Source: an uncultured Candidatus Saccharibacteria bacterium (GTDB lineage: Bacteria > Patescibacteriota > Minisyncoccia > Phycocordibacterales > Phycocordibacteraceae). Taken from it: a stretch of 64,000 nt of DNA. The notes beneath the pieces are model-generated. The model was not told the DNA's origin. It did no database searches and was given only the letters and a program-made list of their open reading frames with translations. This document shows positions 5,350-24,556 of this stretch, one piece after another. The stretch lies in the NCBI GenBank assembly GCA_964391975.1, contig CAYMNZ010000002.1, forward strand, positions 12,708-76,707, read 5' to 3'. Numbering within the stretch: position 1 is the first letter of the stretch; each line of letters opens with the position of its first letter. A program made the position numbers and the translations under genes.

Positions 5350-6782
5350 GGAAGGCGCGGGAATAGGTTTTCGGGCTTTGTGTTCGTCTGTACCGCGGCC
5401 ATGATTGCGTTTGCAGTCGCTGGCATCAGCGGCGCCAGGTGCGCAGCAAGCTTCGCAAGGTGCACAACGAGTTTTGCAATAACAGCGCGCGCCTCTTCTG
5501 CAGTCGCCTCAACCTTAATCTTTTTGTACGGCTCCTCCGTTGTCATGTACTCGTCTCCCTTCGCAACATGCACGAAGATAAGGTCCACCGCCTCGTTGAA
5601 CTTGAACTCTTCGATAAGATTAGCGAAGGCTGGTTCTACTTCTATTTCATCGAGTGCGACTGGCGCCGATAGATGTTCCTCTGCAAGTTTCATCACGCGC
5701 GCGACCAGGTTCCCAAGTCCGTTCACTAAGTTCGCGGTGTACCACTCATCAAGGCGCTCCCAGGTAATGTCGGAATCTTCTACTGGGTGCACATGGCGGA
5801 GCAGCAAGTAGCGCGTCGCATCAGTCCCATACTTCTGCACGAGGTCGTAGGGATTGATGACGTTCCCCAAAGACTTGCTCATACGCTGACCTCCGGAGTT
5901 GATGAAGCCGTGATAGAAAACCTGGTCGGAGTTCTTTACGCCTGCCGAGAAAAGCATCGCCTGCCACATGAGTGACTGGAAGCGCACCTGGTCCTTCCCT
6001 GCCATCTGTAGCACATGCCCTCCCTCCCAGAATTTCTTGAAGTTTCCCTCTAGGTCCTCTGGCCAACCCAAGGTTGAGATGTAGCTGGTGAGCGCATCAA
6101 ACCAGACGTACATAACTTGGGAATCATCCCCTGGTACCGGCACGCCCCACGAAAGCCTGGCCTTCTCACGCGAGATACTGAAGTCCTCGAGACCCCCCTT
6201 CACAAAGGTGAGTGCCTCCTCGCGGCGCCATTCAGGAATGATGACGCTCGGGCGGCTTAGATAGGCCACGAGCCGCTCCTGGTAGTTAGAGAACTTAAAG
6301 AAGTAGTTCTCCTCGGAGATAGTCTCAGGAGTCAGCGAAGGATGGATGGTGCACTTTCCGTTCTCATCGAGCTCCTTCTCCGTCTTGTACGCCTCGCAGC
6401 CAACACAGTACAACCCTGAATAGGTCTTCTTGTAGATGTCACCTGCCGCATCACAGCGCCGCCACATCTCTTGTGCCGCTTTGTAATGAGATGGGTTCGT
6501 CGTGCGGATAAACGCGTCGTAGGAAAGGTCGAGTGCGCCTCCGAGTTTCTTGAACTCATCTGAGTAGTGGTCAACGTACGCGTGCACATCGGTTCCTGTC
6601 TTCTCTGCCGCCTGCAGTATCTTCTGACCGTGCTCGTCAGTACCTATATTGAAAAACACCTCCTCGCCCTTAAGGCGCAGGGTGCGTGCAAATGCATCAG
6701 CCTGGACAAATTCAAGTGCATTGCCGATGTGCGGGTCGGCATTCACGTACGGAAGTGTCGTCGTGAGGTAGCGTGAGCTCAT
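5346..6782 (-). CDS. metG: methionyl-tRNA synthetase, short form lacking the C-terminal tRNA-binding domain
   Basis: 478 aa. HIGH motif (PYVNADPHIGNA), KMSKS motif (RMSKSLGN) and the CxxC knuckle (CVGCEAY...C). There is a 4-nt overlap with tatD. Confidence 0.95.
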   Translation of the reverse strand: MSSRYLTTTLPYVNADPHIGNALEFVQADAFARTLRLKGEEVFFNIGTDEHGQKILQAAEKTGTDVHAYVDHYSDEFKKLGGALDLSYDAFIRTTNPSHYKAAQEMWRRCDAAGDIYKKTYSGLYCVGCEAYKTEKELDENGKCTIHPSLTPETISEENYFFKFSNYQERLVAYLSRPSVIIPEWRREEALTFVKGGLEDFSISREKARLSWGVPVPGDDSQVMYVWFDALTSYISTLGWPEDLEGNFKKFWEGGHVLQMAGKDQVRFQSLMWQAMLFSAGVKNSDQVFYHGFINSGGQRMSKSLGNVINPYDLVQKYGTDATRYLLLRHVHPVEDSDITWERLDEWYTANLVNGLGNLVARVMKLAEEHLSAPVALDEIEVEPAFANLIEEFKFNEAVDLIFVHVAKGDEYMTTEEPYKKIKVEATAEEARAVIAKLVVHLAKLAAHLAPLMPATANAIMAAVQTNTKPENLFPRLP

Positions 6783-6788
6783 TGAAAC

Positions 6789-7832
6789 TTACGCCTTCGC
6801 GCGCTTGCTCTTATCGAAGTCCATAAGAAACTCCTGGAACGCAGCAGCCACCGGCACCGAAAGAAGAACACCAAGGAACCCGGCGATATTGCCGCCCACG
6901 ATGATTGCGAGAATCACCATTAACGGAGGGAGACCGACGATCTTCTTCACCACGAGCGGGTAAATTAAGTTGGCCTGAAACAGGTTCATGATGAGGAAGA
7001 CTCCCGCGACGAGCACCATAAGAGTGACGCCGCCCGTTGAGAAACCAATGATGAGCGCAGGCACCGCTGCGATGAAGGAACCGAAGATAGGAATGAGTTC
7101 TGCAACAGCAGTCAGCGCAGCCAAGAGAAGCGCATAGGGCACGCCAAGGATAAGGAGCAGCAAATAGATGATGACGCCTGAGAGAAGCGAGAGAAGGAGT
7201 TGCCCCTGCATCCACTGCCCTATCTTCACGTGTGCGCGGCGCCAGAGGTTAAGCACATACGGCTCGTATTTCTGCGGGGTAACAATCTTAAGGAAGTCAT
7301 CAATGCCCGTCTCGCGGATGGCGAGATAGAAAGACAACACAATCACGAGGAGCAACGAGAAGATACCGCCGAAGAAGGAGGAGACAAGACGGAAGGCACC
7401 CTCTGAAGTGTCCGCGAATGCGGAGCGGAACGCGAAGATGGTATCGACAAGCGATGTCTGTCCTTCCGCTGCCTGCTCTGCTGCGACCGAAATAGAAGTA
7501 AGCGACGCTGGGAGGTCGAGTGTTTCAAGATACTGCGGAGCCGAAAGGAAGAACGCCTGCGTATCTTCCAAGAGTGGTGGGAGGAACACATAAACGATAC
7601 CGAAAAAGGACCCGAACAATAGAAGGTACATACCCAGAACCGCGAGCACGCGCGGAATCTTATATTTCATGAAAAAGGCCACGCCTGGCTCCACTGCCGA
7701 GGCAATCACAATGGCGGTCAGCACCAGAAGGGCGAGGTCTCGAAGGAACCACAGCAAATAGGCTGCAGTACAGATGAAGATAATCATCACTATCGTGCCC
7801 GGAGTGATGGAGACGTTTATCTGCTTATCCAT
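6789..7832 (-). CDS. AI-2E family transporter (UPF0118/PerM-like permease)
   Basis: 347 aa. The multi-TM profile and overall architecture are typical of AI-2E/YhhT permeases. Confidence 0.8.
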   Translation of the reverse strand: MDKQINVSITPGTIVMIIFICTAAYLLWFLRDLALLVLTAIVIASAVEPGVAFFMKYKIPRVLAVLGMYLLLFGSFFGIVYVFLPPLLEDTQAFFLSAPQYLETLDLPASLTSISVAAEQAAEGQTSLVDTIFAFRSAFADTSEGAFRLVSSFFGGIFSLLLVIVLSFYLAIRETGIDDFLKIVTPQKYEPYVLNLWRRAHVKIGQWMQGQLLLSLLSGVIIYLLLLILGVPYALLLAALTAVAELIPIFGSFIAAVPALIIGFSTGGVTLMVLVAGVFLIMNLFQANLIYPLVVKKIVGLPPLMVILAIIVGGNIAGFLGVLLSVPVAAAFQEFLMDFDKSKRAKA

Positions 7833-11778: not shown

Positions 11779-12312
11779 TTACAGACCGGAAGCAGCGATG
11801 CCCTGATTGATGCGTGCGATAATCTGCTTCCGATTCCCTTCAATGGAAGCTGGCACCTCTCCAGCATCAAGCCCGAGCGCGTTCACAATCCGGAGCGCGG
11901 CTAGGCACTCTGCGGCATCCTGTTTCTCCTCGTTCTCATCCTTAAGCGCGATGAGTAAATCGCGGAAGGCCCGAAAGAGTTCTGGCTCCTTTGTTTCCCC
12001 GTGAACAAGCCGCAAAAGGAGGAGCGAGATGCGCCCCGCTCGCACTCGCGCTGCAGGAGGCAGCTCTGTGAAGTGGTCTTCCACAAGCGAGGCACCTGAA
12101 AGGCGCCATCCTTCTTTTCCGTAGAGCAAGCTCGCGTCGAGCTCTGAGAGGGTCCGGAGCGCATGCGAGAGCTTTGCTCCTGATTTGCGCACTCCCTGCG
12201 CACGTGCACGAAGCAAACCAAAGTCTGCGGTGAGGAGTGTCACGAGCGCACTCGCCTCCCCGATAGACGTACGGGAGAGGACAATGGCCGGCGTGACGTA
12301 GTTAGGACGCAT
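11779..12312 (-). CDS. recO: DNA repair protein RecO (short form)
   Basis: MRPNYVTPAIVLSRTSIGEASALVTLLTADFGLL resembles the RecO N-terminal OB fold. The start at 12312 lies 10 nt after the ileS stop. The longer listed ORF would overlap ileS by about 150 nt. Confidence 0.6.
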   Translation of the reverse strand: MRPNYVTPAIVLSRTSIGEASALVTLLTADFGLLRARAQGVRKSGAKLSHALRTLSELDASLLYGKEGWRLSGASLVEDHFTELPPAARVRAGRISLLLLRLVHGETKEPELFRAFRDLLIALKDENEEKQDAAECLAALRIVNALGLDAGEVPASIEGNRKQIIARINQGIAASGL

Positions 12313-15300
12313 CGCGCGTAAGAGAGAAAGAAACGGGACCCGTTGAAAGCTCGGCGGTGTGAGGGCCACTTCCCTTAACCACTGAAACAGTATCGCGCGG
12401 TGAAAAGCCGGCGGTCTTGCGCGCTTCGGCGACCGCGCGGGCAAAGGCACGTTCATCCCCCTCCTGTACGAGTTCTGGGGTGAGCACCGTATCGAGCTTC
12501 ACCTCCGTTCCAACGACAATGTTTTTCACGTTCACTTCGTCAGCGACAATTGCTGAGAGCGCAGGTGATAGTGCTTCAGTGACCGTAAGCGTTGCAAGCG
12601 GCTGTCGCACTTTGATGTTCGCCTTCTGGCGAAGCATGAGTGCTTCGGAGGCAACCGCGCGGACCTTCTGCATATCAGCAATCAGCGCGTCCTCTTTGCG
12701 AGAGCCGAAGAACGGTTTCTTGATTTCCGGCCAGGAAGCCAAGTGCACACTCTCTGGGTCGTTGTCCTTCTTTACGTTCCTATAGAGTTCCTCTGCAACG
12801 AATGGCATTGCCGGAGCGATGACCTTGGAGAGCTCAAGAAGCACATGACGAAGCGTGCGGAGTGCTGCCTGCTTGTCTGCCTCATCCTCTCCCTTCATGC
12901 GGTCACGAGAACGCCTCAAGTACCAAGTCGAAAGGTCATCAATAAACTCGCGGTACGGGCGCACGGCACGCGGAACATCGTAGCGTTCAAGCGCGTCTGT
13001 TGCGTCCTCAATTACCTGCGTAAGGCGCGCGAGTATCCAGCGATCAAGTGGGTGCGTGCTCTTCCCCTCCCCTTCCTTAAGATCCTGCTTGAAGAGCAGA
13101 TAGAACGACAGCACATTGCGCAGCATGTTCACGACGCGCGCGTGCACATCCTTCACGTCTTCATCGCGGAACATGAGATCCTCTGCCTGCATCACGGGGC
13201 TTGAAAGCATGTAGTAGCGGAAGGCGTCAGCACCATACTGATCAAAGAGCGCGTACGGGTCCGTGTAGTTATTCTTGCTCTTAGAGAGCTTCGCACCATC
13301 CTTGGCCACCACGTTTCCGGTCGTGATGACGTTCTTGAAAGATTGGCGCCCGAAGATAGAGACGGAGATGGCGTGCATGTAATAGAACCATGCGCGCGTC
13401 TGACCAATGTACTCGGACACAAAGTCGCCCGGAGCTCGTTTTTCAAATTCCTTTTGGTTCTCGAACGGATAGTGGTATTCCGCAAACGGCATGGAGCCTG
13501 ACTCTACCCAACAGTCCACGACTTCTGGTGTGCGAGTAAGCGGCTCGCCGTCCTTCTCAAGCACTACGCGATCAAGGTATGGGAGATGGAAGTCGAGCTC
13601 GTAGTTGCGATTGTGCGGCAGCGGTACGAAGTTAAGCGGCACCATCTTTCCGCGCTCGGGGTACGGAATATCGACAATCTCCTTCGCTGTTGCCCCTCGC
13701 ACGATGCCATAGAGCATCCAGAGCGGCTCGCCGTGCGAGACGATGAGTATCTTCTTGTCTTTGTACTTCTCCTCAAGCGAGTAGAGGAAATCTCCCACAC
13801 GCTTCCTGAGGTCGTTAAGAGACTCCCCTCCTTCAGGCCCCTTCTCGAAGCGGGCGAGGTTGCTTTCTTTCGTATCCGGGAAGTGTTTGTGGAACTCGAT
13901 GAGCGTCTGTCCGTTAAGGAACCCGTGATTGTATTCCGAGAGTGCAGCATCAACGACGACCTGTTCAGGCTTGCAGCCGATGGCTTTCACGACAATCTCC
14001 GTGGTCTCGCGCGTGCGCACAAATGGAGAGGTAATAACGACATCGATATCGCACTTCTTGAGTTCCTCCGCAGCTTTGGCTACCTGTGCCTTCCCTTGCT
14101 CCGTGAGGTGTACAGGCTCCGTAGGGTCAGCGCTTATGCGACTCTCCACATTGCTGTCGGCTTCTCCGTGTCGGAGCGAGTAGTACGTATTCCCGCTCTT
14201 CTTCGTGAGCTGCTTGAGCTCATCAAGAGAACCGACCACTGTGACCTCCCCTTTCGGACTCTTCCATATAGGAAGCGGAGACGCCCAGAAACGATTGCGA
14301 GAAATGGTCCAATCAGGGGCACCTTCAAGAATGTGCTTGAAGCGTCCGTGCTTAAGATGCTCAGGCACCCACGTAATCTTCTCGTTCTCTGAAAGGAGCT
14401 TCTGCTTCACGTCTTGTATGTTGATGAACCAGGAAGACACCGCGTTGTAGATGAGCGCTGTACCACAGCGGTAACAGTGCGGGTAGGAGTGCGTATTCAT
14501 CGCACGCGCAAACATGAGGCCGCGCTTCTCAAGGTCTTCCTTTATAAGTGGTTCTGCCTTCTTGATGTACTGGCCGTGTACAAACTCAGGTGCGTCCGTG
14601 TTGTACGTACCGTTGGGGTTCAAGAGTGGGATCATCGGGAGTCCTTCCTTGAGACCGAGCGCGTAGTCATCTTCTCCGTATATGACGGCGGTGTGCACGA
14701 CGCCAGTACCGTCAGTGGTCGTGACAAAGTCTGCTGGGAGCACCATCCACTTCTTTCCTGTGTGTGCCGCTGCCTTCGCTATGGTGTAGAGCGGCTCGTA
14801 CTCAATGCCCACAAGTTCCTTCCCCACGAACTCCTTTGCCGGATTCGAAAGTCCAAGCGTCTCAGCACGCTCCTTTGCTGCAACAAGCGATACGCCGTCC
14901 TTCTCGTAGAGTGCGTATGAAATCTCCGGCCCCACCGCAAGTCCGACGTTCCCGGGAAGTGTCCACGGCGTCGTGGTCCACGCGAGTATATAGGTGTTCT
15001 CCGGAAGTCCGTGTTTCTCCGGATTCCTCACCTTGAACTTCACTGTTACCGCTTCCTCGGTAAGGTCCTTGTACGTGTTGTCCATCGCAATCTCTGCTTT
15101 GGCGAGTGGTGTCTCGCAGTGCGGACAGTACATAAGCACCTTCCTACCCTCATAGAGGCGGTTCTTCTTATGTATCTCCTTAAGTCCCCACCACACACTT
15201 TCGATGAAGCTGTTGTCCATCGTCTTGTAGGAGTTGTCGAAGTCGACGAAGCGTCCAAGGCGCTCAATGTAGCGCTTCCACTCATGCACATAATCAAGCA

Positions 15301-15667
15301 CCATCGAGCGAGCCGTCTCATTGAACGTCTCGATACCTATGGAAAGAATCTCTTTTTTGTTCTTGAGTCCAAGCTTCTTCTCCACGAGAGATTCAATCGG
15401 GAGACCGTGCGTGTCCCACCCCCAGCGCCTGCGTACCCTGTATCCGCGCATGGTCTTGTAGCGCGGGATGAAGTCCTTGGCGACCGAGGAGAGCAGCGAG
15501 CCTTGGTGCGGGAGACCAGTAGCGAACGGAGGACCATCATAGAAGGTGAACTCGCCTTTGGGGGCGGGCTTCTCAAGCGACTTCTCGAAAATCTGCTGCT
15601 CCTTCCAAAACGCGAGAACCTCTTCCTCGCGCGTGGCGACGTCTGTTTTAGCCGTAGTTTCAGCCAT
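12302..15667 (-). CDS. ileS: isoleucyl-tRNA synthetase (type 2) with an inserted histidine-phosphatase domain
   Basis: 1121 aa. HIGH-region (PPFATGLPHQGS), KMSKS variant (KLSKSKNN) and the CP1 editing region are present. Residues ~494-660 (nt ~13688-14188) have histidine-phosphatase motifs (LRHGEADSN, SPFVRTRETTE, LIVSHGEPLW) and are inserted between DWTISRNRFW and DCWVESGSMPF. Confidence 0.92.
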   Translation of the reverse strand: MAETTAKTDVATREEEVLAFWKEQQIFEKSLEKPAPKGEFTFYDGPPFATGLPHQGSLLSSVAKDFIPRYKTMRGYRVRRRWGWDTHGLPIESLVEKKLGLKNKKEILSIGIETFNETARSMVLDYVHEWKRYIERLGRFVDFDNSYKTMDNSFIESVWWGLKEIHKKNRLYEGRKVLMYCPHCETPLAKAEIAMDNTYKDLTEEAVTVKFKVRNPEKHGLPENTYILAWTTTPWTLPGNVGLAVGPEISYALYEKDGVSLVAAKERAETLGLSNPAKEFVGKELVGIEYEPLYTIAKAAAHTGKKWMVLPADFVTTTDGTGVVHTAVIYGEDDYALGLKEGLPMIPLLNPNGTYNTDAPEFVHGQYIKKAEPLIKEDLEKRGLMFARAMNTHSYPHCYRCGTALIYNAVSSWFINIQDVKQKLLSENEKITWVPEHLKHGRFKHILEGAPDWTISRNRFWASPLPIWKSPKGEVTVVGSLDELKQLTKKSGNTYYSLRHGEADSNVESRISADPTEPVHLTEQGKAQVAKAAEELKKCDIDVVITSPFVRTRETTEIVVKAIGCKPEQVVVDAALSEYNHGFLNGQTLIEFHKHFPDTKESNLARFEKGPEGGESLNDLRKRVGDFLYSLEEKYKDKKILIVSHGEPLWMLYGIVRGATAKEIVDIPYPERGKMVPLNFVPLPHNRNYELDFHLPYLDRVVLEKDGEPLTRTPEVVDCWVESGSMPFAEYHYPFENQKEFEKRAPGDFVSEYIGQTRAWFYYMHAISVSIFGRQSFKNVITTGNVVAKDGAKLSKSKNNYTDPYALFDQYGADAFRYYMLSSPVMQAEDLMFRDEDVKDVHARVVNMLRNVLSFYLLFKQDLKEGEGKSTHPLDRWILARLTQVIEDATDALERYDVPRAVRPYREFIDDLSTWYLRRSRDRMKGEDEADKQAALRTLRHVLLELSKVIAPAMPFVAEELYRNVKKDNDPESVHLASWPEIKKPFFGSRKEDALIADMQKVRAVASEALMLRQKANIKVRQPLATLTVTEALSPALSAIVADEVNVKNIVVGTEVKLDTVLTPELVQEGDERAFARAVAEARKTAGFSPRDTVSVVKGSGPHTAELSTGPVSFSLTRDAS

Positions 15668-15708
15668 AATCCTCCATCCTATCGTAGGGGGAAGGATTCC
15701 CCAAAAAC

Positions 15709-15987
15709 CTAGTTATCGATATGGGTGACGATGCGACCAGCGTCAGGCTTCCCGTGTCCCTGTATGACATGTACTTTCTGGTCGTGACTTGAATCCTTCA
15801 ACGCTCTAGTTACAGCCTCGCGGAGTTCGAGCTCGTTAGTGACTACGTACTGACGTGCATTACCGTGCTCGCCCCACGGCGCAATCAAAATCGGGTAGGC
15901 TGCCTTTTTGTCGGCAATCAACTGAAGAACCCCTTCCGCGTTCGTAGCGGAAAGCTGCTGAGGAAGTTGTTCGCCGCTCTGTTCCAT
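15709..15987 (-). CDS. hypothetical small protein
   Basis: 92-aa ORF in the same orientation between argS and ileS. No recognisable family. Confidence 0.4.
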   Translation of the reverse strand: MEQSGEQLPQQLSATNAEGVLQLIADKKAAYPILIAPWGEHGNARQYVVTNELELREAVTRALKDSSHDQKVHVIQGHGKPDAGRIVTHIDN

Positions 15988-15999
15988 ATGTAAACGATA

Positions 16000-17646
16000 C
16001 TACATCTTCGCTGGCGTCGGAATGGCAAGAAGCCAGAGACCATTCTCCATCGTGGTGACGAACGCACGGGCAACAAGCAGCTTGTACGCCTCATGCTCCC
16101 CGCCAAGGATGCGGTTGGCTGCATAGAAAGAGTTCCACTCCCCTGCCAGTTGCGTAAGGTACTGCGCCACATGATGTGGAGCGCGTTCGCGTTCAGCACG
16201 TGCAGCAACTTCTGGGAAGCGCGTAATCAGGCGCTCGATAAGATACGGCTCTGCTGGTGCGTCCTTCGCGTCTCCATCGTTACCCGCGGTCGCAAGAATC
16301 GACTTTGCGCGCACCATCGCGTACTGCAGATACGGACCTGAATCCCCCTCTAGAGAAAGGGACTTCTCAGGATCGAAGATTATGTTCGAACCGAGTGCCT
16401 GGCGGAGAATTGGATACTTAATCGCACCAAGCGCTACCTGCTCAGCAACAATCGGATCCTCGCTCTTTTCGGACACCTGCTCGATAAGATCGTTGATGAA
16501 CGTTCGTGCGGTCACCACGTTCCCTTCGCGCGACGACATCTTGCCCGACGGAAGCTTCAACATGCCGTGCGCAAGGTGCGAGGTCTTCTCGCCAAGAGCC
16601 GGGGCTACCTCTTTGAGCGCCTCGAGCACGACCATGAAGTGCCCGACCTGTTCAGTTGCAGTAACGATGATGGAAACATCTGCGGGCCAGCGCTCTTCTT
16701 TAAGGAAGGCGAGTCCAATCTCTTTCGTCTCGTAGGTGGGCGTACCCTGTGACGTGATGAACACACGAGTGTGCTTCCCCTTTTTCTCTCCCTTGTACAC
16801 GATGGCACCATCGCTTTCTTCGAAGACACCGTTCTCGAGATTCTTGCGCACGATGTCGAGACCGATAGGAGCAGTCTCACTTTCAAAGAAGTAGTAGTCG
16901 AACTTTGTGCCGAGCACTTTGTAGATTTCCTCAAACGCTGCAAGCGATACTTCCCTGCCCTTGCGCCAGAGTTCTGCGAGTTCCCGGTCTTCATTCTTGT
17001 AGATAGCCCGGTTGAGCGCATCTATCTCCGCTTTCGCATCAGGACTCTCTTCGTACGCTTTCGCTCCGTGGGTGTATGCCTTCCCGATGTCAGTAGCGTT
17101 TGCGGGCTCCAGGTTCCCAACCTTCTGCAACCCCCAAAGACACTTAGCCACGTGCGGGCCAACGTCTCCTTCGTAGTTCACATGCGAGACGGTAGCACCG
17201 GAGAATTCAATCAAGCGCGCGACTGATTCCCCAATCGCGTTACTCATGAGGTGCCCAATGTGCATCTCCTTAAATGGATTCGGGTCCGTGTACTCCATCA
17301 TCACGCGCACTCCCTCGTTTGCGGTTCCGCGCCCCCAGTCTTTTCCTGTTGCGCGTAGAATCTCGCTCGTGATGACACTCCGTGCGAGTGTGACGTTAAT
17401 GAATCCAGGTCCTGCAACCGTGACGCTCGTGACCTCCTCTTTGAGGGCCTTCGTGATGCCTGAAGCGATAGTGTCAGCAACTTCCTTAGGGTTCTTCCCC
17501 AGAATCTTGGCCACCACCAGGGCGGCGTTTATGGCGTAGTCGCCGTGAGAGTGGTCAGCTGGGCGCTCTACGGCGAAGGCAACATCGGGAGCTCCGATAT
17601 CTGCCAGTGCCGCCGCTACGACGTCCCTAATGCGAGTTTCCATCAA
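16000..17646 (-). CDS. argS: arginyl-tRNA synthetase
   Basis: 548 aa. It has the N-terminal Arg-tRNA binding region, the HIGH motif (PNPFKEMHIGHLMS) and the C-terminal DALR anticodon-binding region. Confidence 0.9.
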   Translation of the reverse strand: MMETRIRDVVAAALADIGAPDVAFAVERPADHSHGDYAINAALVVAKILGKNPKEVADTIASGITKALKEEVTSVTVAGPGFINVTLARSVITSEILRATGKDWGRGTANEGVRVMMEYTDPNPFKEMHIGHLMSNAIGESVARLIEFSGATVSHVNYEGDVGPHVAKCLWGLQKVGNLEPANATDIGKAYTHGAKAYEESPDAKAEIDALNRAIYKNEDRELAELWRKGREVSLAAFEEIYKVLGTKFDYYFFESETAPIGLDIVRKNLENGVFEESDGAIVYKGEKKGKHTRVFITSQGTPTYETKEIGLAFLKEERWPADVSIIVTATEQVGHFMVVLEALKEVAPALGEKTSHLAHGMLKLPSGKMSSREGNVVTARTFINDLIEQVSEKSEDPIVAEQVALGAIKYPILRQALGSNIIFDPEKSLSLEGDSGPYLQYAMVRAKSILATAGNDGDAKDAPAEPYLIERLITRFPEVAARAERERAPHHVAQYLTQLAGEWNSFYAANRILGGEHEAYKLLVARAFVTTMENGLWLLAIPTPAKM

Positions 17647-17666
17647 ACGAGTATAGCAAAAGCGCC

Positions 17667-18053
17667 CTAGTCCCGAAGGACCTTGATGAGCGCATATTTC
17701 TCCTTCTTCAACATGCCAAACCCGTTCTTCTCGAAGAGTTCTTTGGCGCCGGTGATGGAGAGCACCTCATATACCTTTTTCTTATCGGCGAGTGCAACAC
17801 AGGCATCAATGAGTTCGGTTGCAATGCCCTTCCCTCGAAACGCTTTGGATACCGCAAGTGAGCGAATCTCTGCAAGACGCTTGGAGTAAATGACGAGCGC
17901 GCAACAGCCAACAATACGAGCAGGCTTCCCATCTACCGCAACAAAGAATTCTGTTGTGCGCGGCAGATGATCCTGCAGCAGGATTCCTGCATGCTCGCGT
18001 ATGAGCTTATGAATGGACTTTGCGTCCTTGCTGGTAGCTTTGCGTACTTTCAT
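17667..18053 (-). CDS. GNAT family N-acetyltransferase
   Basis: 128 aa. GNAT motif A is EIRSLAVSKAFRGKGIATELI. Confidence 0.75.
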   Translation of the reverse strand: MKVRKATSKDAKSIHKLIREHAGILLQDHLPRTTEFFVAVDGKPARIVGCCALVIYSKRLAEIRSLAVSKAFRGKGIATELIDACVALADKKKVYEVLSITGAKELFEKNGFGMLKKEKYALIKVLRD

Positions 18054-19328
18054 CTAGCGAAACGACTCTGGAACCGGATGCTTCTCTGCCATCGTCTTGA
18101 TTTCTGCTTTGGCTTTCGCGACGGTGTCTGCGTCGCGTTTGCGAAGTATCTCAATCATGAGTTCAGCGACACGTACGCACTCCGCTTCTTTGAAGCCACG
18201 CGTGGTAATTGCTGGAGTTCCAAAGCGAATACCAGAAGGATCCATCGGCTTGCGCGTATCGTCAGCAATCGAGTTCTTGTTGAGCGTAATGCCCGCCTCA
18301 TCCAAGAGCGTCTCTGCATCGTGTCCTGAAATCTGGTACGAGCCCCAGACGTCAGCGAGGATAAGGTGGTTACTGGTACCGCCCGTAATCAAGCGGGCAC
18401 CGTCCTTGAGGAATACATCCGCCATTGCAGCGGCGTTTACTACCACCTGCTTGGCGTAGGTCTCAAAGGAAGGCTCAAGTGCCTCACCGAAACAGACTGC
18501 CTTGGCAGCAATCATGTGCATGAGTGGGCCGCCCTGGAACCCTGGGAAGACGGACTTATCAATCTTCTTTGCGATGTCTGCATCCTCGCGTGTGAGAATC
18601 ATGCCGCCGCGTGGGCCACGCAGTGTCTTATGCGTCGTGGTAGTCATCACGTCGAAGCCGTAATCAAACGGATTTTTTACTGCCTTACCAGCGATGAGAC
18701 CAGCGATGTGCGCGACGTCCATGACGGCAACAGCTCCCACTTCGCGCGCGATTGCGACGAACTTCGCATAGTCGAGCTCGCGTGGATACGCAGAGTAGCC
18801 AGCAAGCAACATCTTAGGTTTCTCCTTCTTCGCAACCTCGAGCATTGCATCGTAATCGATTTCTCCCGTCTCAATGTTCTTCATCTTATAGCGCACGAAG
18901 TTGAAGATTTTAGTGAGGTAGGTCACTGGGTGTCCGTGTGTGAGGTGTCCACCGTGGGAGAGGTCCATGCCGAGAATCGTGTCTCCGGGCTCAAGAAGCG
19001 CGAAGTACATCGCAACGTTTGCGGGAGCACCTGCGTGTGGCTGCACGTTTGCGAATCCTGCACCAAAGAGTTTCTTCGCACGATCACGCGCAAGGTCCTC
19101 GACAACGTCGGTGTACTGCTGGCCGCCGTAGTAGCGCTTGCCCGGATACCCTTCCGAGTACTTGTTGGTGAGGACAGAGCCCATCGCCTCGCGTACTGCG
19201 AGCGACACGTAGTTCTCAGAAGGAATAAGCTCGAGGCCTTCGCGCTCGCGCTTCTCTTCTCCCTCTATTGCACTCCAAACTTCCGGGTCATCACGCTTCA
19301 CGTGATCGTAGCTGTTCATAAGAGACAC
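18054..19328 (-). CDS. glyA: serine hydroxymethyltransferase
   Basis: 424 aa. LIPSENYVS, the PLP-lysine region TTTTHKTLRGPRGG and GYPGKRYYGG. Confidence 0.95.
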   Translation of the reverse strand: MSLMNSYDHVKRDDPEVWSAIEGEEKREREGLELIPSENYVSLAVREAMGSVLTNKYSEGYPGKRYYGGQQYTDVVEDLARDRAKKLFGAGFANVQPHAGAPANVAMYFALLEPGDTILGMDLSHGGHLTHGHPVTYLTKIFNFVRYKMKNIETGEIDYDAMLEVAKKEKPKMLLAGYSAYPRELDYAKFVAIAREVGAVAVMDVAHIAGLIAGKAVKNPFDYGFDVMTTTTHKTLRGPRGGMILTREDADIAKKIDKSVFPGFQGGPLMHMIAAKAVCFGEALEPSFETYAKQVVVNAAAMADVFLKDGARLITGGTSNHLILADVWGSYQISGHDAETLLDEAGITLNKNSIADDTRKPMDPSGIRFGTPAITTRGFKEAECVRVAELMIEILRKRDADTVAKAKAEIKTMAEKHPVPESFR

Positions 19329-19348
19329 ACTAGGCTTCTAAGTACCGA

Positions 19349-20026
19349 TTATACAAGGAGTCCTTTGACTACCCTATACACATCCTCGTGGATTGCCTCC
19401 CGAGGCCTCATCTGGCCATTTTCCGCGCATTCAATGACGTGCCAGTTAGGCTGGCGCTCGGCAAGCCATTTGGCTGCCTCGTAGCTGCGCTCCATATAGT
19501 CTTGGTCCTTCTCCACTACATCCTTGCCGTCCGTATTCTTCACCTCCCGCTTCTCATCGAGGAGCTTGAGGGAAATCTCAAGTGGCACATGGAAGTAGAT
19601 GACGGCGTCAGGCTTTGGGACACCAAGGGTGGTGTGCTCCATGCCATCGAGCCAGATAAGGAACTCCTCGCGTTCCTCTGTCGCGGAAATCTTGCCTCCT
19701 TGGTGTATCTGGTTGGAGGAGGAAAAGCGGTCCGTAATCACTACCTTCCCCTGGTCGAGCGCATGCTTAATTCTAGGCGTCTCCTCGAAGCGGTCCAGCG
19801 CGTAGAGGGTGGAGGCAATTTTTGGGTCGAGGTTGGCGAAGTCTCCGCACTTCCCGGCAAGGCAGGCGGCAAGGAGGGTCCCAAAGAAGTTGCGGTTGTA
19901 GGAGGGGAAGTTGAGCGCTTCGTGCTCTACATCGTCTTTCTGGAGGCGCTCAGACAGAAGCCTGGTCTGGGTCGCCTTCCCAGAGCCGTCATTGCCGTCG
20001 AGGACTATAAACACCCCTTTTTTCAT
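19349..20026 (-). CDS. tmk: thymidylate kinase
   Basis: 225 aa. The P-loop [15 protein letters not shown] and DRF...S lid region are present. It is divergent from thyA with about 22 bp between start codons. Confidence 0.85.
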
Positions 20027-20048
20027 ACCCTTAGTATACTGCCTGTAT

Positions 20049-20882
20049 ATGGAACAACCCTACCTAGACGTCCTTACAAAGATCCTTGAAGAAGGGAAAG
20101 ATAAAGATGACCGCACAGGCGTAGGTACCCGCAACCTGTTCGGCTTTCAGATGCGCTTTGATCTCTCCAAAGGCTTCCCTGCGATGACTACCAAGAAGCT
20201 CGCATTCAAGGCCGTGAAAAGCGAACTCCTATGGTTTCTGGAGGGCAGCAGCGATGACAATCGTCTTAAGGAATTAAACGGTTCCGAGCGCTCTATCTGG
20301 ACAGCCAATGGCGAAGCCGATTACTGGAAGCCAAAAGCAAAATTTCCTGGGGACCTCGGTCGCGTCTACGGCGTGCAATGGAGAAGTTGGCAGAAGCCCG
20401 ATGGCGGCACCGTCGATCAGATTAAGGATGTAATCGAGCGCATCAAAAAAAATCCTAACGACCGTCGTCTCATCGTGTCTGCATGGAATCCAGGCGAGCT
20501 AGACCTCATGGTGCTTCCTCCGTGCCACATGATGTTCCAGTTTTTCGTCGCAGACGGAAAGCTCTCGCTACAGATGTATCAGCGCAGCTGCGACATGTTC
20601 CTCGGCGTCCCGTTCAACATCGCATCCTATTCCCTTCTACTTTCGATGGTCGCGCAAGTGACAGGCCTGAAAGTCGGAGAATTCGTACACGTACTTGGCG
20701 ACGCTCATATATATATGAACCACATGGACGCGGTAAAAGAACAGCTCGCGCGCGAACCAATGCCGTCTCCAACTCTGTGGCTCAATCCTGAGATTACAGA
20801 CATCGACAAGTTCACCATGGATGACATCAAGCTTGAGAATTACGAGTCACATCCTTCCATAAAAGCGCCGATGGCCGTATGA
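20049..20882 (+). CDS. thyA: thymidylate synthase
   Basis: 277 aa from the ATG ([17 protein letters not shown]...) at track coordinate 20049. The catalytic region is [12 protein letters not shown]. Coordinates follow the ORF track because the printed row 20041-20100 is shifted by 2 nt. Confidence 0.93.
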
Positions 20883-21604
20883 GCGCAGAGAGGCCGATAA
20901 CACCTGAGTCAAAAGAATATACCCGCGAAGACCTGGAGAATTTGTTCTTCTGGTCCTTTTATCCCTCACAAGGAAGCAAAGCACTTCATACACTTACCTT
21001 CATCGTGCTTCTTACGGAAAACCCGGGACTCGTTTCAGAAGTTGAGAAACTACACCAGGAACTTGGTAACTATTCTCCCGCGTGGCTCGATACGCCATTT
21101 GCTGCTCGGCTTGTTGATCGTGTTGGGCGCCGCCGAACAAGCCCTATTCACAGCACTAATCTTTCCCGCCCTCCACTCGAAGCTGAAAAAGAAGTACGCG
21201 ACCGATTGCAGACATTGTTTGAGGCAGCTGAGGCTGCAAAACTGTACCGACAGCACCCAGAAGCAGCGCCGCTTGAAGCATTTGCTCGAGAAACCCTGAG
21301 TCGCGAAATAGTACTCTACAAACAGGCAGAAAGTGGTGAGAAAGAGGGGCTTATGGAAGCCCGCACGCGCGTCGGATTCTCTATGGCGTGCTTCTATGGC
21401 CTCTCTCCTAACCGCGAGACCCATCTTGCAGGAAGTCGTCAAACCCCTCCCCAACCAGGGGAATACCAGGACATGTGGAGGAAAGTTGGAGACTTCTTGA
21501 AAACTTCCTACCCAACGCTCGGATCTGAAACAAAGGATAGGCTTGATCGACTCGTTGAACTCTACCAGAGTGCTACCGGCGAAACGCTTACTCTCCCACA
21601 GTAA
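20879..21604 (+). CDS. hypothetical protein, translationally coupled to thyA
   Basis: 241-aa ORF whose ATG overlaps the thyA stop (ATGA). It lies between thyA and dcd and has no recognisable motif. Confidence 0.5.
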
Positions 21605-21643
21605 TTTTGCATTTCCCTTTCCCCGCTGTATTCTCTTTCTACT

Positions 21644-22342
21644 ATGGCTCTCTCCGACAAGAAGATTCTCGAACACATGAAGGCCGGCACGGTCGTCATC
21701 GAGCCGTTTGATAAAGACAACCTCTGCACGTCCTCAATGGACGTTACCCTCGGCGAGTGGTTCTACCGCGAACAGCGCCCGAAACGCTACAAGAACCTCT
21801 TCAACCTCTACAGCAAAGAGGATACTGAACTTATCTGGGGCACAGAGCCACATCGCGCAAGCTTTGCGAAAGATTGCCTTAACGATTTCAACTTTAAGTT
21901 CGAAGGCATCCGCCCTGACGACAAGGTTATCCTCCTTGAGCCGGGCGAGACGATTCTTGCGCACACCAACGAGTTCATCGGCGGACGCGATACGGTCACT
22001 ACTATGATGAAGGCGCGCTCCTCTCTCGGGCGTAACTTCATCAACGTTTGTAAGTGCGCTGGCTGGGGGGATGTCGGTTACATCAACCGCTGGACGATGG
22101 AGATTTCAAACTCCTCCCGCCACTACATCATCCCGCTCGTCGTTGGTCGCCGCATCGCGCAGCTGGTTTTCTTTGAGACCGGACCTATTCTCAAAAAGGA
22201 TTACGCATCCACGGGCAAGTACCAGACCTCAACCGAGCTCAAGAAGCTCAAACGTGATTGGAAGCCGGAGATGATGCTCCCTCGTCTTTGGAACGATCGC
22301 GATATTAAGAAGCGACAACCGTGGCACAAGAAATCAAAATAA
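21644..22342 (+). CDS. dcd: dCTP deaminase family protein (dCTP deaminase/dUTPase fold)
   Basis: 232 aa. The N-terminus MALSDKKILEHMKAGTVVIEPFD...SSMDVTLGEWF matches the Dcd/Dut beta-barrel start. The context is pyrimidine and thymidylate metabolism. Confidence 0.65.
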   Translation: MALSDKKILEHMKAGTVVIEPFDKDNLCTSSMDVTLGEWFYREQRPKRYKNLFNLYSKEDTELIWGTEPHRASFAKDCLNDFNFKFEGIRPDDKVILLEPGETILAHTNEFIGGRDTVTTMMKARSSLGRNFINVCKCAGWGDVGYINRWTMEISNSSRHYIIPLVVGRRIAQLVFFETGPILKKDYASTGKYQTSTELKKLKRDWKPEMMLPRLWNDRDIKKRQPWHKKSK

Positions 22343-22767
22343 GTAACACCCTAAGCGCCTATGGCGCTTTCGTTACCTACGTCCCGCTCAAGGGCGAAGT
22401 CCCCTTCAACGACTACCTCACACTTCCCAAGGAAGCAGCGCAATACAAAATTACACCCCGCGCTTCTCTCAATCCCGAGCGCGAAGCTGAAGCTGCACGC
22501 GCCGCTGCCAAGGGACTTCCAGTTGCTATCCTCATGCCAGGACGCGCCTTTGATCTTCACGGCACACGGCATGGCCAAGGCGGCGGCTGGTACGACCGCT
22601 TCCTTGGGTTTGTTCCCAAGAACTGGCTGCGGGTTGGATTCTGCTACCCTACTCAATTCTTTGAGGGCCCCATCACCCGGGAGCCGTGGGATCAGGTCAT
22701 GGACTACGTCTGCGTGGCCGAAGGAAGTGGGCTCGTGGTCTATCACACCAAAGCGCGTGGCATTTGA
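22321..22767 (+). CDS. 5-formyltetrahydrofolate cyclo-ligase-like protein (short)
   Basis: 148 aa. GQGGGWYDRFL matches the MTHFS family signature GxGGGYYDRxL. It overlaps the dcd end and precedes folA. Confidence 0.6.
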   Translation: MAQEIKISNTLSAYGAFVTYVPLKGEVPFNDYLTLPKEAAQYKITPRASLNPEREAEAARAAAKGLPVAILMPGRAFDLHGTRHGQGGGWYDRFLGFVPKNWLRVGFCYPTQFFEGPITREPWDQVMDYVCVAEGSGLVVYHTKARGI

Positions 22768-22779
22768 TACTCTAAGGAC

Positions 22780-23268
22780 ATGATTGCTGCCATTGCTGCT
22801 ATCGGAGCTACCACCAACGTCCTCGGAAAGGACAACGATCTCGTATGGGAAATCCCCGAAGACCTTGAGCGGTTCCGAAACTTCACCCGCAACCACCCCA
22901 TCATCATGGGCCGCAAGACCTGGGAATCGCTGCCTGCCGAACGCCGACCACTCCCCAAGCGCACCAACATCGTGGTGACACGCCAAGCTGACTACGATGC
23001 TCCGGGCGCAGTGGTTGTGTCTTCAGTTGAAGCTGCTGTTGAAGCGGCAAGGAACTCACCAGGAGCTGAAGAGATTTATATCATTGGTGGCAGCGGGATT
23101 TTCAAAGATTCCTTCCCGTATACTGACCGTCTCTATCTCACGCTAGTGCATGACGACGCAGAAGGTGATGTGCACTTCCCCGACTACGGGGAGTTCACGA
23201 AAGTAATTGAGCGCATCGAGCACCTCGACCACACGCCGCCCTACACGTATCTCACCCTTGAACGCTAG
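22780..23268 (+). CDS. folA: dihydrofolate reductase
   Basis: 162 aa. MIAAIAAIGATTNVLGKDNDLVWEIPEDLERF, the IIMGRKTWESLP NADPH/folate motif and GG..I are present. Confidence 0.9.
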   Translation: MIAAIAAIGATTNVLGKDNDLVWEIPEDLERFRNFTRNHPIIMGRKTWESLPAERRPLPKRTNIVVTRQADYDAPGAVVVSSVEAAVEAARNSPGAEEIYIIGGSGIFKDSFPYTDRLYLTLVHDDAEGDVHFPDYGEFTKVIERIEHLDHTPPYTYLTLER

Positions 23269-24089
23269 CGTGCGTAGTACTGCGTACTGAAGATAGAAAT
23301 GAGAAGTTCAACTCTGCTCCGCAGTGCGGGGGGAAGTTCTTTCTCTTCGAGAAGCGTCCCCGCAGTCGTCAGTGCTTTCCCCAACATAGTGCTCGTGATA
23401 GCTCCTATCTTCATAAAATAGCGCGACTGGTCGCCCGTATGTCTATACTCGGCAACAATGGGCTCGAACGCCCTACGGAACTCGGCAAGTTCTTCGGGTA
23501 GTTCCTTAAGGGCCTGTGCAAACAGTGGGCCGTAGTAGCGAAGTGCTTCGACGCCCTGCGTGTCTTTGTGCATGCGTTTCGCGAGCGTACGACAGATAGC
23601 AGCTACGAGTTCGTTATTTATAACGGGCTGCGGAAGATCGCGCGCACCACCGAGGTAGAGCTGGCGTTCAAGCAATTTCATGATGACAATGATGCGTTCG
23701 CTATTCATCTCCAGTTCTTTGCGATCTTCAACCGTAAAGAAGACCCGGATAAGAATGGCGAGCGCTGTACATTTTTCACGCTCCCAAATCCACGCGGCAT
23801 TGCTGGCATCTATTTCCCGATTTATTCCCCGTGCAGCATGCGCGGTAGTCGCATTCTCTCCATACTTCTCAACAAGATTTTCCGGAAGCGGTGTCTGCAT
23901 AAAACGCATAATCGCTTCAGCGGGGTTCTGCGTATTCAAGAGGTCTTCAATCATGCCGATGGCAATGCCCTGAAGTACCTGCGGGAACACCAGGTTCATG
24001 TCTCTGGCGCGCTCAAAGATTGGGGTAATCTCCGCCACAGACATGGGTCCTTTCTCAGGATTGGAGGCTGTCTCAGGAGTGTTCGACAT
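23265..24089 (-). CDS. hypothetical protein
   Basis: 274-aa ORF. It is predicted helical and has no recognisable motif. Confidence 0.5.
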   Translation of the reverse strand: MSNTPETASNPEKGPMSVAEITPIFERARDMNLVFPQVLQGIAIGMIEDLLNTQNPAEAIMRFMQTPLPENLVEKYGENATTAHAARGINREIDASNAAWIWEREKCTALAILIRVFFTVEDRKELEMNSERIIVIMKLLERQLYLGGARDLPQPVINNELVAAICRTLAKRMHKDTQGVEALRYYGPLFAQALKELPEELAEFRRAFEPIVAEYRHTGDQSRYFMKIGAITSTMLGKALTTAGTLLEEKELPPALRSRVELLISIFSTQYYAR

Positions 24090-24107
24090 GCGCGTATTCT
24101 ACACAAG

Positions 24108-24136
24108 AAAAAACCCCGCTTTCGCGGGGCTGGTTC
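24108..24136 (-). terminator. rho-independent terminator downstream of rplK
   Basis: On the minus strand, GC hairpin CCCCGC-gaaa-GCGGGG is followed by TTTTTT. Confidence 0.7.
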
Positions 24137-24556
24137 TTATTTAACGTTGATTCCCATCGAGCGGGCGGTGCCTTCAATGATGCGGTCGGCCGCTTCAGGA
24201 GAGCCTGCGGAGAGGTCCGGCATCTTCTGCTCAGAGACCTTGCGAACCTGGTCCTTGGTCAAGGTTGCAACCGGCTTGCCGCCTGGCTTCTGAGAACCCT
24301 TATCCATACCAAGAATCTTGAGAATAAGACGAGAAGCTGGAGGGGTCTTGAGAACGAAGGAGAAGGTGCGGTCCTCGTAGACGGAAAGGTCCACAGGGAT
24401 GATATCTCCCATCTTGTCCTTGGTGGCCTCGTTGAACTTGTTAACGAAATCTCCAATGTTCACACCGGCTGGACCGAGGACGGTACCGACTGGAGGCGCA
24501 GGGGTGGCCTTCCCTGCGGGGATTTGGAGCTTAATCTTCTTTACGACTTTAGGCAT
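24137..24556 (-). CDS. rplK: 50S ribosomal protein L11
   Basis: 139 aa. [26 protein letters not shown] is the L11 signature. Confidence 0.95.

Follow-up and report, generated by a model that had tools for sequence, protein, structure and literature searches.

Organization of the locus

The DNA considered here is a 64,000-nucleotide stretch (the window) of contig CAYMNZ010000002.1 from an uncultured Candidatus Saccharibacteria bacterium, and positions are those of the window unless another sequence is named. It contains a compact thymidylate and folate locus in which tmk is divergent from thyA, dcd, a gene for a short protein of the 5-formyltetrahydrofolate cyclo-ligase (MTHFS) family, and folA, and in which a 241-residue protein of an uncharacterised family, referred to here as X, is encoded between thyA and dcd (Table 1). 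We find that the operon is ordinary for its lineage and that X is an optional insertion in it, which in this genome has been exchanged together with thyA.

Table 1. Genes and other features of the thymidylate/folate locus, with the basis of each assignment (window positions)
Feature	Position	Strand	Basis or comment
glyA (serine hydroxymethyltransferase, SHMT)	18054-19328	-	PF00464, E 2.2e-148, 495 bits
tmk (dTMP kinase)	19349-20026	-	PF02223, E 1.3e-20, 74 bits; NF005923, E 2.4e-34, under its cut-off
tmk/thyA divergent intergenic region	20027-20048		22 bp; palindrome AGTATACT
thyA (thymidylate synthase)	20049-20882	+	PF00303, E 1.1e-113, 379 bits
X, 241 aa, all-alpha, uncharacterised family	20879-21604	+	ATGA overlap with thyA; no Pfam family
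thyA + X block, recombinant	20049-21604	+	identity drop at thyA start; X phylogeny; third-position GC content
X-dcd spacer	21605-21643	+	39 nt; junction sequences
dcd (dCTP deaminase family), 232 aa	21644-22342	+	PF22769, E 5.3e-33, 115 bits
short MTHFS (5-formyltetrahydrofolate cyclo-ligase family), 148 aa	22321-22767	+	PF01812, E 6.6e-15, 55.9 bits
folA (dihydrofolate reductase, DHFR)	22780-23268	+	PF00186, E 1.8e-46, 158 bits
Y, orphan open reading frame, 274 aa from longest start (257 aa per Joint Genome Institute, JGI, call)	23265-24089	-	no family

An earlier note on this DNA, made from the letters alone, had described the divergent arrangement, and each of its open reading frames (ORFs) lies where that note placed it. 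The note had also read in the locus the route from dCTP through dUMP and dTMP to dTDP together with folate recycling, and this is backed by Pfam: ThyA, DHFR, SHMT, Tmk and Dcd all exceed their gathering scores, and all five are full-length and adjacent. The set is more complete than the note supposed, as glyA, which was overlooked there, lies directly downstream of tmk just beyond the left boundary that the note considered. It completes the ThyA-DHFR-SHMT cycle by regenerating 5,10-methylenetetrahydrofolate, and the locus contains this whole cycle in addition to Tmk, Dcd and an MTHFS-type enzyme. The list of ORFs includes no separate dut gene in the cluster.

A standard operon with an optional gene

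A thyA-seeded scan of species-representative genomes yielded 80 loci, and the window proteins were compared with their six-frame ORFs. The top matches are metagenome-assembled genomes of Patescibacteria or Candidatus Paceibacterota, and the order glyA-tmk / thyA-dcd-(MTHFS)-folA beside rplK recurs in dozens of Patescibacteria genomes (L009-L012, L014, L016-L018, L021, L024, L027, L030 and others); glyA is next to tmk in most of the Paceibacteria loci, and dcd or folA follows thyA within about 45 nt in approximately 45 of the 67 loci L009-L075. The cluster beside rplK-nusG-secE is therefore a standard Paceibacteria thymidylate-cycle operon. Like bacterial thyA-folA and other thymidylate-cycle operons it has all five enzymes, full-length, in one divergent operon pair, and it differs from them in that the window genome and a few relatives have an unrelated 241-aa ORF between thyA and dcd. 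The correspondence with the relative L012 is very close, with protein identities of 98% for GlyA, 96% for Tmk, 98% for Dcd, 95% for MTHFS, 96% for FolA and 100% for RplK, and Tmk is 95% identical to that of the sister species L010.

As the earlier note reported, X starts within the thyA stop codon; thyA ends in GCC GTA TGA and the ATG of X occupies 20879-20881, which is the sole option for its start, since the stop-to-stop frame opens at 20837 and offers no other start codon before the conserved region. The junction is kept in four other lineages. Three of these have a gtATGA overlap, with X homologues of 47% (P0002 in L089), 38% (P0003 in L091) and 34% (P0005 in L010, also L093) BLASTP identity to window X, and in the fourth (P0004 in L092, 35%) the gene begins as TAA + 4 nt + ATG; the ATGA overlap is thus present in four genomes including the window. 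L012, L009 and L011, the closest three of the relatives that share this operon, nevertheless lack X cleanly; in them thyA ends GTA TAA and abuts dcd, whose ATG follows after 12 nt (the X-less junction contains GCCGTATAATCCTGCAACTATGG). A family hidden Markov model (HMM) run over the six-frame ORFs of the 80 thyA loci located X in L010 only, with no second copy in the window, so that it is missing from 78 of the 79 other loci examined. The 39-nt spacer between X and dcd is near-identical in the X-bearing L010, and a 12-nt spacer is found in the X-less relatives; no flanking repeats were seen at the thyA-X-dcd junctions. Conservation of the coupling, which the note had proposed to check, thus holds in four other lineages and fails in the three closest ones with the same operon. 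Because sister species have thyA abutting dcd without X, we conclude that X is dispensable for the operon and is an optional accessory insertion between thyA and dcd in one sub-lineage.

The ATGA overlap deserves some caution. Same-strand junctions overlap in 4 of approximately 20 cases in a 20-kb gene table of the same contig, and most of the others are separated by fewer than 30 nt; as tight packing is the rule on this contig, the overlap alone is weak evidence of a functional link, and being translationally coupled to thyA is not enough to place X in the pathway. Since X at the thyA locus has neither its own promoter nor its own spacer, it is probably made by re-initiation of ribosomes that have finished thyA. 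A promoter and terminator scan found nothing significant within the operon, with no terminator-like site from thyA to folA, and Rfam and tRNA scans of the region were likewise empty. Upstream, the AGTATACT palindrome between tmk and thyA presents a TATACT -10-like hexamer on each strand, 8 nt upstream of the start codon of thyA and 6 nt upstream of that of tmk. This 22-bp region is 100% identical in L012 and near-identical in L010, and a consensus scan found no full sigma-70 site; we regard the TATACT boxes as putative divergent promoters, whose positions suggest leaderless or very-short-leader transcripts of tmk and thyA.

The earlier note had argued from the coupling that X has a role in the same pathway. 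In its strongest form this would make X an integral component, either a missing dUTPase or nucleotidase step between Dcd and ThyA, or an obligate subunit of ThyA. The location of X between thyA and dcd, the overlap in four genomes, the lack of a separate dut gene in the cluster, and the joint transfer of thyA and X described below could all be understood in this way. However, X is missing in L012, L009 and L011, where the proteins of the operon are otherwise 80-100% identical, it is present in only one of the fetched thyA loci, neither its sequence nor its fold resembles dimeric dUTPase, MazG or HD phosphohydrolases, and its relatives elsewhere are coupled to a different gene or stand alone. 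Nor need any step be missing. The best relative of Dcd in the PDB is the bifunctional deaminase/diphosphatase of M. jannaschii (1OGH, 6.6e-14), which aligns over query residues 1-179 with 1-169, and other Dcd entries match only the C-terminal half; the score against TIGR02274 is 91.0, for a cut-off of 92.8. Dcd is thus possibly of the bifunctional dUMP-forming type, and with this full-length resemblance a separate dUTPase is not obviously lacking. We judge an integral role of this kind to be very unlikely, and a core-pathway role for X is essentially excluded; with X absent from close relatives that have the same cluster, and its homologues coupled to other genes or solitary, the step from coupling to pathway membership does not hold.

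A small and fast-diverging protein family

The identical X protein is encoded on 17 metagenome contigs (of up to 742 kb) from several samples. A word-indexed homologue search recovered X alone, and HMMER, run exhaustively over 1.84 billion representative proteins, gave 18 matches, of which one is spurious: P0016, a Big_9/cadherin-repeat protein of 1999 aa, which matches over a 42-aa low-information stretch only and was rejected. A profile re-search with the family alignment A1 added one further homologue, P0019, among the best 8000 candidates. The homologues are 212-283 aa long, with one additional fragment, share pairwise identities of 21-57%, form 90%-identity clusters of 1-4 members where this was checked, and are called hypothetical wherever their source names them. 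The family is seen only in Paceibacteria-type contigs.

Alignment A1 reveals five conserved elements, NLxFWSFxxSQGS, H91, RxxxGxSMxCxYGLSxxRE, LPxExQxLW and YxxxTGExxxL, with R162, G166, S168, W200 and T233 invariant. All of these are present in window X, whose score with the family HMM is 261.7 bits. An AlphaFold2 model built from a 17-sequence alignment is confident (predicted local distance difference test, pLDDT, 92.4; predicted template-modelling score 0.88), with 13 helices and zero strands. In this model the conserved polar positions W25-S26, S30-Q31-G32, H91, R162, G166 and S168 would lie mostly at helix ends or in loops, as would S176, E195, W200, T233 and E235; only two acidic residues are conserved in the family.

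The earlier note's remark that X has no recognisable motif is borne out, as no family match was obtained in Pfam, NCBIfam, PHROGs, PADLOC or PDB sequences, and a Pfam and PADLOC scan of all 17 members found no family shared among them. The remote homology and structure checks that it had suggested reveal no homology to any known protein and a confident all-alpha predicted model. Foldseek with this model found nothing in the PDB (best E 0.83, template-modelling, TM, score 0.23) and nothing among the BFVD viral models, whereas, as a positive control, the model of the 148-aa MTHFS recovers its own family at 16-25% identity; a profile search of PDB sequences with X returned designed helical repeat proteins only, at E >0.1. 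A search of IMG/VR with alignment A2 and a tblastn search of phages (INPHARED) with X and its homologue P0008 gave no relatives, and a metagenome search with alignment A3 returned only the already known FTGQ01000081 contig. X shows no internal duplication (probability 1.9%) and no relationship to the nearby orphan Y (hhalign probability 0.9%), and a literature search found nothing relevant to it.

The lack of annotation is the only argument for viewing X as a chance ORF in a spacer rather than a gene. This has a negligible probability in our estimation, given a conserved family with invariant residues, the AlphaFold2 pLDDT of 92, and the occurrence of an identical protein on so many contigs from several samples. 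X is a real protein of a very small, fast-diverging and uncharacterised family.

Joint exchange of thyA and X

ThyA is otherwise the most conserved protein of the set, and in L012 and L010 it is 97% identical; yet ThyA of the window is only 86% identical to each of them, while the other genes of the region are 91-100% identical between the window and L012. At the nucleotide level, identity to L012 is 0.90-0.94 across glyA and tmk and drops to 0.73-0.81 in thyA, and the upstream breakpoint is located exactly at the thyA start codon, immediately after the fully conserved 22-bp intergenic region. Downstream of the X stop codon, the 39-nt spacer is again near-identical to that of L010. Window X groups with the copies of L089 and L091 and not with that of the sister species L010 (bootstrap 85-88), and its GC content at third codon positions (GC3) of 0.46 is the lowest of the cluster, the neighboring genes having values of 0.57-0.71, and resembles that of the lower-GC L089 lineage. 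Because of the identity step, the spacer, the grouping of X and its GC3, we conclude that homologous replacement from a more distant Paceibacterium brought in thyA and X together, thyA of this genome being a xenologous allele. Such physical co-transfer is compatible with co-adaptation of the two genes and is no proof of it. Gene-scale recombination in Paceibacteria is cleanly illustrated by this natural case, in which thyA and X were swapped.

Homologues of X in other genomic contexts

The most widespread arrangement of the X family is just downstream of a LOG-type nucleotide phosphoribohydrolase gene (TIGR00730; PF03641 + PF18306), with four homologues in this position. The homologue P0018 (L097; arrangement at 5638-7819) is joined as TAGgtATG with a 2-nt spacing, and the other three as TGAtATG with a 1-nt spacing: P0019 (L098/L099; L098 3-1554), P0013 (L100/L101; L100 5630-7816) and P0011 (L102; 3-1080). 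They are 25-34% identical to window X and match the family HMM with E values of 1e-58 to 1e-77. An RNase_T-family exonuclease gene is present upstream of LOG in L097 and in L100/L101, the other two contigs ending before that point, and the genes of this RNase_T-LOG-X' group (X' being the X homologue) overlap or are 1-2 nt apart, amid housekeeping genes (rplI, rpmA). It may be a nucleic-acid and nucleoside monophosphate (NMP) salvage module of Paceibacteria. L100 is contig JAIETW010000001.1, and the thyA locus of the same genome (L009) is without X.

In a neighbor-joining tree the LOG-coupled members fall into two deep clades (bootstrap 96 and 100), and those coupled to thyA into a single one (bootstrap 51-67). 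This distribution suggests that the coupling to LOG is likely the older one, and that to thyA derived and lineage-specific. The LOG-coupled paralogues resemble X of the window in family, length and motifs and in being translationally coupled to an enzyme that binds a nucleoside monophosphate; they differ in the upstream partner, in the locus, and in forming two deep clades as opposed to the single derived thyA clade.

Three further homologues, P0006, P0008 and P0009, are solitary, each with its own TATAAT-like box just upstream, and lie in unrelated neighborhoods (ClpB; an XRE-type helix-turn-helix, HTH, gene; DUF1653/PIF1). The XRE-type gene is beside P0008, on the opposite strand. P0008 (L095 1600-2412) has a C-terminal extension of about 30 aa that matches Sigma70_r4 (PF04545) at residues 227-259, with E 6e-5 and 22.9 bits against a cut-off of 24.1, and the family-wide Y...TGE..L motif aligns with the first part of this HTH match. 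X could on these grounds be a degenerate regulator of the nucleotide operon, derived from a sigma factor or other HTH protein, and a size of about 240 aa and an all-alpha structure are like those of small sigma factors. We nevertheless think such a derivation very improbable: only one of the 17 members matches, and below the gathering score, window X ends right after TGETLTLPQ without a recognition helix, Foldseek yields no sigma or HTH protein, and the isoelectric points of most members are acidic to neutral.

The short MTHFS, orphan Y and neighboring genes

The earlier note had called the 148-aa MTHFS unusually short while retaining a GxGGGWYDRFL signature. The signature is indeed kept, but the length is the norm in Patescibacteria: there are 250 homologues, and among the 120 matches listed almost all are 120-168 aa, with those that are named being mostly 5-formyltetrahydrofolate cyclo-ligases of Patescibacteria. 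It matches PF01812 at profile positions 88-185 of 186, with 1-87 unmatched, scores 57.4 against TIGR02727 (cut-off 84.9), and its alignments with PDB sequences start at target residues 73-131. Between species with a 55% difference at four-fold sites the protein remains 95% conserved, and its AlphaFold2 model (pLDDT 87.7) recovers twelve MTHFS structures in Foldseek with probability 1.00 and query-normalised TM scores of 0.55-0.60 (E 4.7e-7 for 1wkc, 5.2e-6 for 1sbq and 7e-5 for 3hy6). We regard it as a clade-typical MTHFS that retains the predicted fold; it shares with PF01812 members that fold and the C-terminal GQGGGWYDRF signature (GxGxGxYDR), and unlike them has no segment corresponding to approximately the first 87 profile positions. 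The short MTHFS occurs independently of X: L012 has MTHFS but no X, and the reverse is true of L089 and L091. The gene has a GTG start and overlaps dcd by 22 nt, over the coding sequence of the Dcd tail; Dcd exceeds the characterised enzymes of its kind by some 30-40 aa, and this basic C-terminal tail (…KKLKRDWKPEMMLPRLWNDRDIKKRQPWHKKSK) is part of the surplus.

The orphan ORF Y is convergent with folA and overlaps its stop codon by 4 nt. Pfam, NCBIfam and PHROGs assign it to no family. L012 has it in split form with 87% identity and L009 with 47% identity, and it is absent from L011, L089 and the contig L003 of a co-occurring strain; at the Y position L010 has a 266-aa ORF of remote similarity only (E 2e-5, with 26% over 91 aa). 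This gene is outside the pathway, and is a variable or indel gene. L003 (JGI 3300020195 contig; window positions ~13,700-24,300) is identical base for base through thyA-X-dcd to ~22386, beyond which it diverges in MTHFS-folA, with ~94% identity over the compared stretch, and its folA stop codon is followed directly by the rplK terminator, without Y. This points to strain-level mosaic recombination and a Y indel within one community, Y being gained or lost between co-occurring strains.

Two genes on the minus strand at the left of the cluster are worth recording. A 128-aa GNAT acetyltransferase (17667-18053), 91-94% identical in the closest relatives, has a 0-nt spacing to glyA and may be co-transcribed with glyA-tmk. 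Further away, at ~12302-15667 (L001 1424-4789), is a class-I aminoacyl-tRNA synthetase of 1121 aa with tRNA-synt_1 and Anticodon_1 matches, in which a precomputed Pfam match to His_Phos_1 lies between two tRNA-synt_1 segments, likewise in L093; a histidine-phosphatase insertion in this synthetase would, if real, be an unusual inserted domain.

Possible roles of X

Two independent recurrent partners of the X family, ThyA and LOG, both bind nucleoside 5'-monophosphates, and it is for this reason that we propose X to be a non-essential protein that binds or modulates the enzyme encoded upstream, or one that binds a nucleotide ligand. X would then tune enzymes of the nucleotide pool rather than catalyse a step of the dTMP route. 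As a whole, an ordinary operon with a dispensable X that was exchanged along with thyA and acts as nucleotide-enzyme partner, modulator or ligand binder is the account we favor, with confidence somewhat better than even. Several points weigh against it. Its mechanistic part is guilt by association only, the three solo homologues with boxes of their own weaken a strict enzyme-partner model, and tight packing is normal in this genome, so that the coupling is perhaps incidental.

The main rival to X as a partner or modulator is that X is a selfish or conflict-type hitchhiker, a mobile cassette resembling a freestanding homing endonuclease or a defence or anti-defence gene, which settles behind strongly expressed housekeeping genes and whose link to thyA is incidental. 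Its presence varies at a single precise position between two conserved genes, it diverges very fast, its GC3 is deviant, and its phylogeny is discordant with that of the host, with the adjacent thyA replaced as co-conversion predicts (a single such event is documented). Solo copies lie beside HTH_3 and PIF1-helicase genes, and the neighboring orphan Y behaves alike. Freestanding homing endonuclease genes occur between nucleotide-metabolism genes in T-even phages, such as mobE between nrdA and nrdB, and the seg genes; the likeness to these is a functional analogy only, consisting of an optional ORF at a fixed intergenic site, patchy in distribution, with thyA co-replaced. X departs from them in having no GIY-YIG, HNH or LAGLIDADG signal and no phage relatives, and in its host, which is cellular and belongs to the candidate phyla radiation (CPR). 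Moreover, Pfam and PADLOC give no sign of a nuclease, integrase or defence family among the 17 members, PADLOC giving 0 matches for window X and one weak match to PDC-S24 (E 0.0067) for a single family member; window X has no PHROG match, no relatives were found in IMG/VR or in INPHARED phages, and the junctions show no flanking repeats. The LOG-X' pair, furthermore, is stably syntenic amid housekeeping genes across very divergent genomes, as a conserved operon would be, and unlike a mobile element. We consider it unlikely, on balance, that X is a hitchhiker of this type.

A bolder form of the partner proposal would have the X family as partners or regulators, with a new fold, of NMP-processing enzymes in the CPR, paired with LOG ancestrally and later recruited to ThyA; this we put forward as a speculation with rather low odds of being correct. 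The thymidylate/folate cluster itself is ordinary for the lineage and teaches little. The useful outcome is the negative one, against the pathway role that the note read from the coupling. Beyond this there is X: a rare CPR-specific family with a confident predicted structure, no relatives detectable by sequence or by fold, and recurrent couplings to two nucleotide enzymes. If the partner proposal is true, X would provide lineage-specific tuning of dTMP and NMP turnover in nucleotide-scavenging episymbionts, and demonstration of a specific interaction would make it a new regulatory element in the nucleotide salvage of ultra-small symbionts.

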